Notes under the pieces: model-generated | Database searches by the model: none | Told to the model about the DNA's origin: nothing | Seen by the model: only the letters and a program-made list of their open reading frames with translations | From: an uncultured Rhodospirillaceae bacterium | GTDB lineage: Bacteria; Pseudomonadota; Alphaproteobacteria; UBA6615 | Reading direction: 5' to 3' | DNA length: 64,000 nucleotides | Assembly (NCBI GenBank): GCA_964530225.1 | Contig: CAZHBA010000110.1 | Span: 6,958-70,957, forward strand | Shown: positions 1 to 48,636 of the stretch, piece by piece | Numbering within the stretch: position 1 is the first letter of the stretch | Layout of the letters: each line of letters starts with the position of its first letter | Translations under genes and position numbers: made by a program

Positions 1-70
1 CCGATAACTGGTCGTCGCATCGGCTACTATAATCAGGGCCGAATGAACACAACTTCTGGGGGAAACAGAT

Positions 71-718
71 ATGAGTTTAGAAAACCAGCTGACCAAAATT
101 CGCGAGGCCAGCGCCAAACGAATTCCTGAGGACAAACGTGCAGTCCTGGGTAGCCACACCCAGGAGTTAATCGATTCAGGTATCATGGACCGGACGATCC
201 AGGTCGGCGATACCTTGCCGCCTTTCGCTTTACAGAATTCGAACGGAGCCGAAGTTACGTCAGCCGGATTACTGGCCCAGGGGATGGTGGTAATGACCGT
301 GTTCCGCGGCCATTGGTGACCGTACTGCAATGCAGAGCTGTATGCTATGCGCAACATCGTAGAACCTTTGAAAGACCTCCGCACGACCCTGGTTGCCCTC
401 ACCCCACAACTGCCCGAATTCAGCGCCGGCATGGTCGAAAAACATAAATTGAACTTCGACATGCTCGCCGATCCCGGCAATGCCTATGCCGCGGAACTGG
501 GTATTCGCTTCGATTTGCCCGACGCGGTGCGCGAGATTTACCTGGGCTTCGGCAATGACCTGGCGACCGTCAATGGCGACGACAGTTGGACCCTGCCAAT
601 GCCGGCGCGCATTGTCGTCGACAACGGTGGCATTGTGCGTGCCACCGATATCGATCCCCGCTACAACACGAGACCCGAACCCGAAAAGACCCTTGAGGAC
701 GTAAGAGCGCTCGCTTAG
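71..718 (+). CDS. Peroxiredoxin-like (AhpC/TSA, PRX_like2-type) thiol:disulfide oxidoreductase. One reading frame is interrupted by an in-frame TGA at 317-319, which is either a selenocysteine codon or a nonsense mutation.
   Basis: ORFs 71-319 and 347-718 are in the same frame. Read through the TGA, the sequence is ...VMTVFRGHW[TGA]PYCNAELYAMR..., matching the conserved F-R-G-x-W-C-P-Y-C motif of PRX_like2 redoxins with TGA at the first Cys. The frame stays open for 133 further codons. A hairpin lies at 332-350. Confidence 0.6.
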
Positions 719-844
719 CGGCTAAATCCTCAGCAGTTATTTGCCGAGTACTCGATCATCGGGCGCCCAGTTTACGTTTGGCCAGGCGTCAAGCCCGGCC
801 TCCTGGCTTGACAACCTCCCGCCGCCGAACCATCGTGTCGGCCT

Positions 845-940
845 TAAAGTGATGCTGGGGTGTCCCCGAATGTTCGGGGTCTGAGATTATACCCACGAAC
901 CTGATCCGGATCATGCCGGCGGAGGGAGCTATCGCAAGTC
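845..940 (+). promoter_or_regulatory. TPP (thiamine pyrophosphate, THI-box) riboswitch aptamer in the leader of the ABC operon that starts at 993
   Basis: CTGGGGTGTCCCCGAATGTTCGGGGTCTGAGATTATACCCACGAACCTGATCCGGATCATGCCGGCGGAGGGAGC matches the THI-box core (GGGGUGC..stem..CUGAGA..ACCC..GAACCUGAUCCGGAUAAUGCCGGCG.AGGGA). The P3 hairpin is CCCCGA/TCGGGG. A downstream CTCCCCC (948-954) can pair either with the aptamer 3' GGAGGG or with the SD GGGAG (982-986). Confidence 0.85.
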
Positions 941-992
941 TCGCAAACTCCCCCACCGCCCTAACCACCGGATCGCTTGCCGGGAGATAGCT

Positions 993-2132
993 ATGTCTAT
1001 TCGTTCTTCGTTGCTCGCTCTAATCGGCGCTGCTTGTTGCACGCTTGCTTTGGCGAATATCGCCAGCGCACAGTCGAAGCCAGTGACCATTCCGGTGCTG
1101 GTGCCGCTCACCGGGTTCCTGTCGCTGGAAGGCACCAGCCAGCGCAACGGCGCCGATCTGGCCCTGCGCGGAGCGGCCAATGCCGGCGTGAGTTATGCGG
1201 TCAGTGACACCGCGACCTCGCCAGAGGTGGCGGTCAACGCTCTTGAGCGCGCCATGACCGGCGACAATGTGGTCGCCGTCGTTGCCCCCATGCTGGGCAC
1301 CCAGATGCTGGCTCTGGTGCCACTTGCCGACGAGTTCAAGGTGCCCCTGGTAACAGTGTCGGGTACCGCCAAGATCACCGAGCTGGGTAGCCCCAACGTC
1401 TACCGCTTTTTCCCCGGCGACGTGGTGGTCAAGCAGGCACACGCGCGCTACGCGGTCGAAGAACTGAGCATCAAGCGGCCCGCCGTGGTCTATCAGACCA
1501 CCGCCTACGGCCAAAGCGGCCGCGCCGAGCTATCGCGTAATCTGACCGCGCTGGGCATCCCGCCGGTAGTCGAAGAGGCGATCGCGGTATCGGTCAAGGA
1601 CATGCTGCCGGTGCTGAGCAAGGTGCGTGCCGCCAACGCCGATGCGTTGCTGCTACACTTGCACGCCGGCTCGACGGCGCTGGTTATTCGCCAGGCGCGG
1701 GCCGCCGGCATCGACATTCCCATCGTCGCTGGCTCGGCCATGCACCAGCCGCAGACCGCCGCCCTGTTGGAGCCGGCCGAGCTCGCCGGCGTGTGCGCCG
1801 AAAGCGGCTCGTCGCCGATCTCCGGCGGCAACCGCGACATGGAGGACTTCGCTAAACGCTACCGCGCTGCCTTCGGCAGCGAGCCCGACGCCTTCGCGCT
1901 GGGCCAGTACGATGCGGTGCAGATGATCCTCGCGGCGATCCACGCCGGTGCGCGCACCCCCGCCACCATCCGTAGCGCCCTGGCCAACAATAGCCACGAT
2001 GGTCTGGCCATGACCTACCGATCCGACGGCAAGGGAAACATGGCCCACGACGCGGTCATCCTCTGCTACGACGGATCGGACCGCATGCCAGACATCGTCA
2101 AACGCTACGAGAACGTTACCGGTGTACGGTAG
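993..2132 (+). CDS. ABC transporter substrate-binding protein, LivJ/LivK-like (PBP type 1, Peripla_BP_6-like), with signal peptide
   Basis: The N-terminal signal is MSIRSSLLALIGAACCTLALANIASA. The body resembles branched-chain amino acid-type binding proteins. It is the first gene of a Liv-type operon. Confidence 0.85.
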   Translation: MSIRSSLLALIGAACCTLALANIASAQSKPVTIPVLVPLTGFLSLEGTSQRNGADLALRGAANAGVSYAVSDTATSPEVAVNALERAMTGDNVVAVVAPMLGTQMLALVPLADEFKVPLVTVSGTAKITELGSPNVYRFFPGDVVVKQAHARYAVEELSIKRPAVVYQTTAYGQSGRAELSRNLTALGIPPVVEEAIAVSVKDMLPVLSKVRAANADALLLHLHAGSTALVIRQARAAGIDIPIVAGSAMHQPQTAALLEPAELAGVCAESGSSPISGGNRDMEDFAKRYRAAFGSEPDAFALGQYDAVQMILAAIHAGARTPATIRSALANNSHDGLAMTYRSDGKGNMAHDAVILCYDGSDRMPDIVKRYENVTGVR

Positions 2133-2190
2133 AAATCAGCTACACACTGGAACATGATTCTTGCCGCTTCGCTCGCCCACCCCTCCCTAA

Positions 2191-2312
2191 CCCTCCCCCT
2201 CGATGGGGGGAGGGAACGTGTTGGCGGCGCAGCTAGACTTCCCCCTCCCTCCTTGCGGAGTAGGGATGGGGTAGGGGATCCGTTAAAAAGCCCTCTCCCA
2301 CAGGGAGAGGGC
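2191..2312. repeat. Cluster of three GC-rich palindromic (REP-like) hairpins between the binding-protein and permease genes
   Basis: The hairpins are CCCTCCCCC-TCGAT-GGGGGGAGGG (2191-2214), an imperfect CCCCCTCCCTCC-TTGC-GGAGTAGGGATGGGG (about 2240-2277), and GCCCTCTCC-CACA-GGGAGAGGGC (2290-2312). The last ends 3 nt before the ATG at 2316. Confidence 0.7.
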
Positions 2313-2315
2313 TAG

Positions 2316-3200
2316 ATGCTCGCAGCGCAACTAGCGCTGAACGCGCTCGCTCTGGGGGCGGCCTATGCGCTAGTGGCGCTAGGCTTCGTGCTGGTGTTGA
2401 ACGCTACAACGGCGGTGAATTTCGGCCACGGCGACACCGTCGTCGCCGGCGGCTTTCTAGCCGTCGTCCTGGCAACACTCGTCCCTGTTGACTTTGCTGT
2501 GCCCGGGCTAGTGCTGCTACCCGCCATCCTGGCGCTAATGGCGCTGTTCGGCGTCGTCATGTCGTGGCTGGTCTACCTGCCAATCCACGACCGGCCACCG
2601 GTAGTCACTTTTATTACTACCATCGCGTTCGGCATCATCGTCGCCAACGGAATTAACGCCGTGTTCGGCGGCGCACCACGCAGCGCGCCGACATTGATCG
2701 GCGGCGGCGGATTCTATGCCGGCGATCTTTTCCTCAGCCGCCAGTCGGTCGCCATTATCGCCGTCTCGGCGGTGCTGATCGCCGCCTTGTCGCTGTTACT
2801 CAACCGTACCCAAATCGGCCGCCAGTTGCGCGCCTGCGCCCAAGATCCGGAGATGGCCCAGGCCGTAGGCATCCGCCTCACCCGCATGACCATGATCACC
2901 TTCGCGCTCGCCGCCGCGCTGGCCGGCGCCGCCGGGTTACTACTTACCAACCAGTTCTTCGTCACACCGAGCGATGGCGGCATGTTGATACTCAAGACCT
3001 ACATCGCGGTGACCATCGGTGGCTGGGGCAGCTTGCGCGGGGCGGTCGCTGGGGCGATGCTAATCGCCGCGTTCGAGGTGGCGGTGGCCAGCCAGTTCTC
3101 CCAGCCGCTCGCCGAGGGTCTGCTCTACGTTACCCTGTTCGTGGTGCTGTTCTTCCGACCGCAAGGGCTGTTCGGCGAAACCGTCAGTCAGCGCGCGTGA
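2316..3200 (+). CDS. Branched-chain amino acid-type ABC transporter permease (LivH-like)
   Basis: A 294 aa polytopic membrane protein with typical LivH composition and operon position. Confidence 0.85.
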   Translation: MLAAQLALNALALGAAYALVALGFVLVLNATTAVNFGHGDTVVAGGFLAVVLATLVPVDFAVPGLVLLPAILALMALFGVVMSWLVYLPIHDRPPVVTFITTIAFGIIVANGINAVFGGAPRSAPTLIGGGGFYAGDLFLSRQSVAIIAVSAVLIAALSLLLNRTQIGRQLRACAQDPEMAQAVGIRLTRMTMITFALAAALAGAAGLLLTNQFFVTPSDGGMLILKTYIAVTIGGWGSLRGAVAGAMLIAAFEVAVASQFSQPLAEGLLYVTLFVVLFFRPQGLFGETVSQRA

Positions 3201-41205: not shown

Positions 41206-41589
41206 ATGCGGGTCGGTGTCATAGCACCACCCTTCAGAGTAGAAAGTGGCTACCCTCCTCAGCGCGTCCTAACGTTCGATGATACAAAGGCACCCGTTGA
41301 TAACTGAGCAGTGCCCGAGGACCATCACGTCCGTTCTGCGCTGGCCTTCGCACGGCAATGTGAACGGCCGTCACTGCTAATTCATTGCCAAGCCGGAGTG
41401 AGCCGGTCTCCAGCCATTGCATTGGCTATATTTCCCGACTGGCTGGCTTCAGGACGTGAGGAAGAGGTTGTGCGAGAGCTAATGCAAGTGGCACTCCCCT
41501 GCACGCCAAATACGCTTGTGGTAAAACTTTCGGATAAAGTTCGTGGATGCGAAGGACGGCTAACTTCGGCACTCCAGAAAGAAATTTGA
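41206..41589 (+). pseudogene. Protein tyrosine phosphatase-like gene (COG5350-type, HCxxGxxRS), 5'-truncated and carrying an in-frame TGA at 41305-41307
   Basis: LLIHCQAGVSRSPAIAL is the CX5R phosphatase signature. The upstream in-frame segment MRVGVIAPPFRVESGYPPQRVLTFDDTKAPVDN[TGA]AVPEDHHV aligns with the family region before the P-loop. The first 25-30 residues or so of homologs are absent, and AT-rich DNA sits there instead. Confidence 0.6.
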
Positions 41590-47944: not shown

Positions 47945-48427
47945 ATGATTAAGGTTCAACAGGAAAATTTCGACGTTAGCGCTGAGCTCGCGAGCTTAAC
48001 TGCCGGTAACCACCAGATCGGTGGAGTCGTTAGTTTCGTCGGATTGGTGCGCGACCTAACAAAGGCGGACGGCCGTGACTCCGCTTTGAAGGCGATGACC
48101 CTGGAACATTATTCGGGCATGACCGAGAAAAAACTGGCCGAAATCGAGGCCGAGGCGCAAGCGCGCTGGCCGCTCGAAGCCAGCCTGATCATCCACCGCT
48201 ACGGCCACCTCCAGCCCGGCGAACAAATCGTTCTGGTTGCCTGCGCCTCAGCCCATCGCCAGGCAGCAATCGATGCCTGCAGTTTCTTAATAGACTGGCT
48301 CAAGACCGAAGCACCACTCTGGAAACTGGAGGAAACCGACACCGGCAAAGAGTGGGTCGAAAGCCGAGCTGGCGACGATGCAGCAGCGGCGCGCTGGCAG
48401 GTCAAACCGGACCGAGCCGTCGAATGA
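47945..48427 (+). CDS. moaE: Molybdopterin synthase catalytic subunit
   Basis: Has the conserved MoaE segments GGVVSFVGLVRD, LEHYSGMTEK and PLWKLE. Confidence 0.9.
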   Translation: MIKVQQENFDVSAELASLTAGNHQIGGVVSFVGLVRDLTKADGRDSALKAMTLEHYSGMTEKKLAEIEAEAQARWPLEASLIIHRYGHLQPGEQIVLVACASAHRQAAIDACSFLIDWLKTEAPLWKLEETDTGKEWVESRAGDDAAAARWQVKPDRAVE

Positions 48428-48636
48428 ACGTCATTCTAAAATCAACGATCGCCTGTCCCCATTGCGGGTATGAACAGCCTGAGATTACGCCCACTAACAC
48501 CTGACAGGTTTTCTACGATTGTCGCTCATGTGGCGAAGTTTTGCAGCCCCGACCGGGCGATTGCCGCGTTTTCTTCTCATACGGCGATGTACTCTACCCC
48601 TCGGTCCAACAAGACGGTTTGCAGTCCTGCGAATAA
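48424..48636 (+). pseudogene. GDCCVxC-family small Cys-rich protein gene with an in-frame TGA (48502-48504) and several lost Cys codons
   Basis: The ATG overlaps the moaE stop (ATGA). The product is MNVILKSTIACPHCGYEQPEITPTNT[TGA]QVFYDCRSCGEVLQPRPGDCRVFFSYGDVLYPSVQ. As I recall it, the family pattern is CPxCG...MPTDAC-x-FYEC..C...L.P.PGDCCVFCSYG.V.CPP.Q. On that pattern four conserved Cys positions read TGA, CGC(R), TTC(F) and TAC(Y). Confidence 0.55.

Follow-up and report, generated by a model that had tools for sequence, protein, structure and literature searches.

Here, we propose that the in-frame TGA at positions 317-319 of the window encodes selenocysteine (Sec) at the active site of an intact gene for a peroxiredoxin (Prx)-like selenoprotein, one that carries a conserved SECIS hairpin and is accompanied in its genome by the full Sec machinery. 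We put the probability of this reading, which is drawn from comparative sequence analysis, at about 0.94. By the window we mean the whole 64,000-nucleotide stretch of DNA that was analysed (contig C110:6958-70957). It belongs to a genome of 2.84 Mb in 130 contigs (99.4% complete, 58.5% G+C), which its two-piece tmRNA marks as that of an alphaproteobacterium. The family is not novel; the gene in the window is a mis-annotated further member of a selenoprotein family catalogued in 2005-2008.

A single reading frame interrupted by one TGA

The open reading frames (ORFs) at 71-319 and 347-718 belong to a single frame, of which the TGA at 317-319 is the sole interruption. Direct reading of the codons around it (ggc cat tgg TGA ccg tac tgc) gives G-H-W-U-P-Y-C. 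The preliminary description, which had claimed both the shared frame and a GHW[TGA]PYC motif, was correct on each. The features of the gene are as follows:

58-63, + strand: putative Shine-Dalgarno-like GGGGGA, 7 nt 5' of the ATG, proposed from reading of the sequence
71-718, + strand: complete CDS of a 215-residue Prx-like (AhpC-TSA/Redoxin fold) selenoprotein, in one frame when the TGA is read as U
71-73 and 716-718, + strand: start ATG and stop TAG of this CDS
317-319, + strand: UGA codon, read as selenocysteine U83 from the sequence and the homologue column; first position of the UxxC redox motif
326-328, + strand: TGC codon of Cys86, the UxxC partner of Sec83, invariant in 24 of 24 aligned sequences
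332-350, + strand: probable SECIS hairpin (5' arm 332-338, loop 339-343, 3' arm 344-350), based on conservation and covariation
347-718, + strand: 123-aa ORF given by gene callers, an annotation artefact with a non-conserved ATG and no separate gene

When the TGA is read through, the 215-residue product matches the Pfam families AhpC-TSA (PF00578; 70.8 bits, with a cut-off of 26) and Redoxin (59.4 bits). Its conserved MSL is the start of a full-length alignment with 23 homologues (24 sequences in all). The gene is intact: in answer to the question of decay raised in the preliminary description, the alignment runs over the full length with no frameshift, all invariant residues are present, and no further decay is seen. 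The protein has neither a signal peptide nor a membrane anchor, and the product would be one cytoplasmic redox enzyme of 215 residues and of the Prx-like thioredoxin-fold type.

In the databases, dozens of proteins with lengths of 123 or 129 residues match only the C-terminal 57% of this product, at 60-100% identity, and start just past the same stop. Could the locus then hold two separate functional genes, one for an 82-aa N-terminal peptide and one for a 123-aa C-terminal protein? Both ORFs do exist under table 11. However, the ATG at 347 is replaced by a Leu codon (TTG or CTG) in 29 of the 38 Sec forms described below, so the start is not conserved, and this ATG lies inside the hairpin. In addition, the C-terminal piece is missing the redox motif together with half of the fold, and the frames are always continuous. 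We consider two genes to be extremely improbable.

No sigma-70 promoter was called in positions 1-1000 of the window, and three terminator-like matches were disregarded, all of them lying within the coding sequence. As to the surroundings, an alpha/beta-hydrolase (FrsA-like) gene on the same strand ends about 105 nt upstream of the Prx-like gene, and an FrsA-like gene is likewise found upstream of the Ser-form genes discussed below. Downstream lie a TPP riboswitch (846-945; 57.2 bits) and then a Liv-type ABC importer. No functional tie of these neighbours (hydrolase, riboswitch, importer) to the redoxin gene is evident.

Conservation of the TGA and the machinery to decode it

The TGA is conserved well beyond this genome. 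A stop-tolerant search that covered 60 related genomes yielded 15 further genes in 13 of them (55-76% identity), each with one in-frame TGA; all of these TGAs align at G-H-W-U-P-Y-C, and the protein is conserved on either side of the codon. When GTDB species genomes were scanned and a motif scan was then applied, TGA was counted at the identical codon in 41 homologous genes (38 distinct), and TGC or TGT in 59 Cys forms. The hosts of the TGA forms span at least eight phyla and include Alpha- and Gammaproteobacteria, Acidobacteriota, Spirochaetota, Thermodesulfobacteriota, Methylomirabilota, Planctomycetota, Ignavibacteriota, and Actinomycetota. An apparent Trp form (P0008) was rejected, as it is actually a TGA that the gene caller had translated as W. 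The column of U83 is occupied by the first Cys of W-C-P-Y-C in the 59 Cys-form loci and in the sequences L029, P0043, and P0054. The preliminary description had asked whether orthologues carry TGC or TGA here: they have TGA at codon 83, with TGC or TGT confined to more distant homologues.

In a maximum-likelihood (ML) tree, the 40 distinct Sec forms fall in one clade (support 96/91), which also takes in four nested Ser forms and one unresolved Cys form. This clade is sister to a Cys-only clade, with a joint support of 100/99. The topology fits a single old change from Cys to Sec that would have been kept ever since.

The genome also encodes everything that bacterial Sec decoding would call for, as the preliminary description had suggested should be checked; selA, selB, selD, and tRNA-Sec (selC) were all found, each above its curated cut-off. 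ARAGORN identifies one tRNA-Sec (C7:32104-32199) of 96 nt, with anticodon TCA, an 8-bp acceptor stem, and a long variable arm. On the same contig, selA (595 bits) and selB (453 bits) are adjacent (C7:26091-29353), and selD (407 bits) lies on contig C57. This selD itself contains one in-frame TGA and is of the Sec type. Moreover, the machinery co-occurs with the TGA form of the gene: selA is present in 14 of 14 TGA-form genomes vs 19 of 47 others (Fisher p = 3.8e-5). In the organism, Sec-tRNA(Sec) would be made from tRNA(Sec) by way of SelA and selenophosphate from SelD. The hairpin would then recruit SelB-GTP with this Sec-tRNA(Sec) to a ribosome paused at the UGA, in competition with release factor 2.

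These observations bear on three other explanations of the TGA. The preliminary description had itself offered one of them, that the gene is a pseudogene in which a nonsense mutation has simply turned TGC into TGA; the two codons are one base apart, and gene callers give only the 123-aa C-terminal ORF. It is effectively refuted by the recurrence of the same TGA in 41 genes that span at least eight phyla, are free of frameshifts, and encode protein conserved to either side of the codon, by the old clade into which the Sec forms fall (together with the nested Ser forms and the unresolved Cys form), by the presence of selA in every TGA-form genome, and by a conserved hairpin specific to the TGA forms (below). 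We give a nonsense mutation next to no credence. A sequencing or assembly error would be conceivable in a metagenome-assembled genome that is a draft of 130 contigs. Yet the downstream product identical to the 123-aa ORF (database protein P0007, 100% identity), and hence the same stop, is present on 13 contigs from four independent sources, and forty other genes from other assemblies have the same codon. An error is therefore vanishingly improbable.

The third explanation is read-through without Sec, by near-cognate insertion of Trp, Cys, or Gly or by a local change of the code, the hairpin then being a generic stimulator or pause site. One database gene call of an orthologue does give the TGA as W. 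On the other hand, this genome commonly uses TGA as a stop: of 1482 long stop-to-stop frames, 471 end in it, which excludes a genome-wide code change. The only tRNA with a TCA anticodon is the tRNA-Sec with its 8-bp acceptor stem and long variable arm, the co-occurrence of TGA forms with selA is strict, and homologues have at this position a redox Cys, which Sec is known to replace. Read-through of this kind is, in our view, very unlikely, and insertion of selenium at U83 is by far the more probable outcome.

A hairpin specific to the TGA forms

The hairpin downstream of the TGA is exactly as the preliminary description had drawn it, with arms GCAGAGC (332-338) and GCUAUGC (344-350), a UGUAU loop (339-343), six pairs plus a G335.A347 mismatch, and a stem that begins 12 nt past the UGA; its apical loop lies 19 nt past the UGA. 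The 19-nt hairpin of the window allele has an energy of -5.5 kcal/mol by itself. Folding, which had been suggested as a check, upheld the proposal in part: the hairpin is present, but the local fold of 317-380 (minimum free energy, MFE, of -9 kcal/mol) is no better than that of shuffled sequences (z = 0.30), and the MFE structure differs from the proposed hairpin. Since the hairpin of the single sequence is not significant by itself, its significance comes only from comparison with relatives.

That comparison, also suggested beforehand, shows a hairpin that is conserved and co-varying in the Sec forms and absent from the Cys forms. Across the 38 Sec forms, 92.9% of cells in the 7-bp stem are paired; controls with the 3' arm slid 1-3 columns out of register reach 24-52%. 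The covariation score and the count of double-sided changes both exceed those of all 500 shuffles. In terms of alignment columns, 29 sequences have C-G at pair 20/36 and five, from different phyla, have U-A (T20 goes with A36 at Fisher p = 1.8e-5, a value not corrected for phylogeny), while pairs 21/35 and 22/34 alternate between A-U and G.U and between G-C and G.U, respectively. The double-sided covariation rests on two pairs because most stem positions are invariant. The loop reads U-G-N-N-N in 37 of the 38 Sec forms, with a conserved G at its second position and mostly U or G after it. The G.A mismatch of the window allele is common to nine sequences of the same taxonomic family, and so is a long-tolerated feature.

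Among the 59 Cys forms, these columns are paired in only 55.4% of cells, which does not surpass one of the slid controls. The hairpin energy averages -8.05 kcal/mol across the Sec forms and -1.84 kcal/mol across the Cys forms (Mann-Whitney p = 8e-15). The two groups share the encoded peptide E-L-x-A-L here. The codons under the stem are nearly fixed in the Sec forms (GAG in 38/38, CTG in 37/38, GCT in 37/38), in contrast with the Cys forms (27/59, 19/59, and 9/59, respectively). Among 16 family-level sequences, the codons beside and under the stem do not vary synonymously at all at +4 (AAT), +5 (GCA), +6 (GAG), +7 (CTG), and +9 (GCT), as against 1.1-2.4 bits at other 4- and 6-fold codons of the gene; the sole variable synonymous site of the element is in the loop.

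Two other structures were considered and set aside. The rival MFE structure (GAGC loop, 11 pairs) pairs in 74.9% of cells across the 38 sequences, with no excess over shuffles (227/500), and a split structure from RNAalifold is weak (-2.67 kcal/mol) and has no double-sided changes. An Rfam scan of positions 1-3000 of the window at E <= 1 returned no SECIS family, the only matches being the TPP riboswitch and one chance match.

The hairpin at 332-350 thus most likely acts as a bacterial SECIS, with binding of SelB as the expected mode of action. Like the SECIS of the E. coli fdhF type, it lies within the coding sequence directly 3' of the UGA. It differs in sequence, the family having a stem of seven pairs and a 5-nt UGNNN loop with no bulged U, and the window allele having in addition its G.A mismatch. 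The minimal SECIS of E. coli fdhF is placed 11 nt from the UGA and requires GU in its loop, which we take to be a spacing and a loop resembling those of the hairpin described here.

Family, fold, and the derived Ser forms

Selenoproteins of this kind have been reported before, as the preliminary description had remarked of bacterial Prx-like proteins in general, and this particular subfamily was published in 2008 as part of "Prx-like 1". A "Prx-like protein" with a thioredoxin-like UXXC motif was represented by 22 sequences in the Sargasso Sea selenoproteome (PMC1088965). The marine selenoproteome of the GOS data subsequently listed a "Prx-like 1" family (pfam00578, UxxC) (Zhang and Gladyshev 2008; PMC2398784), identical with that Sargasso Sea family, and it falls within the entry "Prx-like thiol:disulfide oxidoreductase, PF00578, UxxC/UxxU" that a 2026 review gives as a predicted family of high confidence (PMC13188914). 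The supplementary dataset "#Prx-like 1" contains reads with ...VFRGHWUPYCNAELYAMQ...NGDDSWTLPMPARIVV...RPEPEKTLADVKAIG, and four reads under this label carry UPYCNAELYA (PMC2398784). One of these four (JCVI_READ_1091140194640) is 65% identical to the window protein over 197 residues (E = 2e-100). The PF00578 domain, the UxxC motif, and the Sec residue are the same in the family and in the window protein, and nothing essential differs. The published family is heterogeneous, including UPYCRRQL-type and secreted WUPYCK-type proteins as well (PMC2398784). Relative to these, the window gene belongs to a UPYCNAEL sub-branch of about 215 residues with a two-helix N-terminal extension.

The closest Cys counterparts are named "peroxiredoxin-like family protein" by NCBI (the PRX_like2 redoxins of the preliminary description, putatively of the cd02970 type) and occur, for example, in Ruegeria, Sphingomonas, Roseiarcus, and Xanthobacter. 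They share length, fold, and W-C-P-Y-C motif with the window protein, at 40-49% full-length identity. They differ in having TGC or TGT in place of TGA, in having no conserved hairpin (mean of -1.8 kcal/mol, 55% pairing), and in forming a separate sister clade. None of the curated NCBIfam models is reached: the BCP, ResA, SelL-related, MauD, and PrxQ models all score far below their cut-offs (for example, 23.8 bits with a cut-off of 120 for SelL-related NF040769 and 36.1 bits with a cut-off of 140 for the BCP equivalog NF006960).

An AlphaFold2 model built on the 24-sequence alignment (pLDDT 95, pTM 0.91) consists of N-terminal helices at 3-17 and 20-35 followed by a Prx/thioredoxin fold, with residue 83 immediately preceding helix 84-94. 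The best Foldseek matches are BcpB, Bcp1/4, and AhpE (TM 0.88-0.90 on the target, 16-21% identity, E down to 2.6e-12), and the fold is thus Prx-like. In HMMER alignments, U83 falls on the Thr of T-P-G-C in BcpB (5epf) and Cys86 on the BcpB peroxidatic Cys. More generally, Prx of the BCP/PrxQ and AhpE types (5epf BcpB, 3hjp Bcp4, 1xxu AhpE) have the same fold and a peroxidatic Cys that aligns with Cys86; their catalytic Thr, however, is Sec here, the Pro of their PxxxTxxC is Arg79, and the window protein has about 40 extra N-terminal residues and a thioredoxin-like UxxC motif. The canonical Prx pattern PxxxT/SxxC is accordingly absent, positions -3 and -7 relative to Cys86 being Sec and Arg79. 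R180, within P-A-R-I-V-V-D, is conserved in at least 90% of the 24 sequences and is a candidate for the counterpart of the active-site Arg of Prx.

A second comparison is with the ResA/TlpA-type oxidoreductases (3c71, 4nmu). Their W-C-P-x-C motif matches W-U-P-Y-C, as HMMER finds for the W-C-P-H-C of ResA (3c71), and Sec is at the position of their N-terminal nucleophilic Cys. The similarity is weak (E = 7e-5; 33 bits vs a cut-off of 170), and the Prx structures match better. The preliminary description had placed the TGA at the attacking redox Cys. This stands insofar as the codon is that of the N-terminal Cys of a CxxC motif; it does not stand for the peroxidatic Cys of Prx, the place of which is taken by Cys86, while the TGA aligns with the Prx catalytic Thr.

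What might the enzyme do? In the mechanism that we propose, Sec83 would be the attacking nucleophile of U-P-Y-C, reacting ahead of Cys86 with either a peroxide or a substrate disulfide. It would then form an intramolecular selenenylsulfide with Cys86, which a thioredoxin- or glutaredoxin-type donor would re-reduce. Peroxidase and disulfide reductase chemistry are both compatible with the candidate enzyme as judged from its motif and fold.

The Ser forms bear on this question. The four closest full-length database proteins have Ser at position 83, encoded by TCA in three and TCG in one, and TCA is one base from TGA. In the ML tree the Ser clade (support 99/98) is nested inside the Sec clade, beside the window's own sub-branch. 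The hairpin is intact in two of the Ser forms (-11.2 and -7.6 kcal/mol) and decayed in the other two (-3.7 and -4.0 kcal/mol). This pattern indicates that constraint on the hairpin relaxes once the TGA is lost, the Ser clade serving as a natural control. The Ser forms recreate a Prx-like SxxC site and keep Cys86 and the other invariant residues. If they are active, catalysis would depend primarily on Cys86, with position 83 in the role of a tunable activator or resolver. It is possible, although we consider it unlikely, that the UPYCNAEL sub-branch is a mechanistic hybrid and not a plain thioredoxin-like UxxC protein, with Sec at the Prx catalytic-Thr site beside a Cys at the peroxidatic position. 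Were this so, the series would document an unusual path from Cys to Sec and on to Ser. The derived Sec-to-Ser clade, with its eroding SECIS and its bearing on the catalytic residue, is the only mildly unusual point of the gene.

Our findings establish no new principle, and their practical value lies in annotation. Public databases give this gene and dozens of its orthologues as a truncated "peroxiredoxin" of 123-129 residues, when the real product would be a 215-residue selenoenzyme. For the organism, the correction adds one selenoprotein to a selenoproteome that already has a Sec-type SelD, and its use of selenium is confirmed. For the family, the 38 Sec, 59 Cys, and four derived Ser forms make up a clean natural experiment on SECIS constraint, in which the hairpin and its frozen synonymous codons are found only where the TGA is present and erode where it has been lost.

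Sec decoding in the source genome and other in-frame TGA codons

We assign the selD of the source genome (G000) to the Sec type because it carries a single in-frame TGA. A second SelD-like match in this genome, of the Cys type (contig C103, 791-1693; 284 bits), lies within a 600-residue frame which may encode a fusion protein. The selD gene and two further TGA-interrupted ORFs, both in the window and separate from the Prx-like gene, are as follows:

G000 contig C57, 32368-33297, (-): selD with one in-frame TGA (locus L001)
Window 48424-48636, (+): small Cys-rich ORF, TGA 48502-48504 in frame
Window 41206-41589, (+): HCxxGxxRS phosphatase-like ORF, TGA 41305-41307 in frame in the translation

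The small ORF has the pattern CPHCG...FYDC..C...GDC, with the TGA occupying a Cys position. Since the source genome decodes Sec, this TGA could be a Sec codon rather than a sign of decay.

Tandem, partial and probably mislabelled relatives, and the downstream region

Loci of note in two of the related genomes, and a riboswitch downstream of the window gene, are as follows:

G026 contig C11, 4727-5368 and 5640-6281: tandem paralogues (the L017, L034 pair)
G011 contig C8, 91754-92002: partial match to the window protein (locus L032)
Window 846-945, (+): TPP riboswitch (Rfam RF00059; 57.2 bits vs a gathering score of 54.3)

The tandem paralogues are 270 nt apart, and each carries the TGA as well as the hairpin; gene callers have fused tandem copies of this type into the chimeric database proteins P0033 and P0036. 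The G011 match, found in this one related genome, covers residues 1-83 only (61% identity) and stops at the Sec position; it may be a truncated or decayed copy. Another Prx-like Sec gene (L041) is on a MAG contig, CAMATU010000054.1, recorded as Klebsiella pneumoniae, a label which is probably wrong because the gene groups with uncultured proteobacteria in the tree. The riboswitch immediately precedes the gene for a periplasmic binding protein, at 993-2132, together with genes for ABC permeases.

Ser forms within the Sec clade

Four full-length homologues on metagenome contigs, 60-64% identical to the window protein, have Ser at the Sec position (GHW-S-P-[YF]-C), encoded by TCA in three and TCG in one:

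L117, 325-327: Ser codon
L119, 1747-1749: Ser codon
L120, 348-350: Ser codon
L121, 1058-1060: Ser codon

Two of the four retain an intact SECIS hairpin, and in the other two it has decayed; the tree places the clade of all four within the Sec clade (support 99/98). The Ser-form clade represents a Sec-to-Ser replacement, unlike the usual Sec/Cys exchange.
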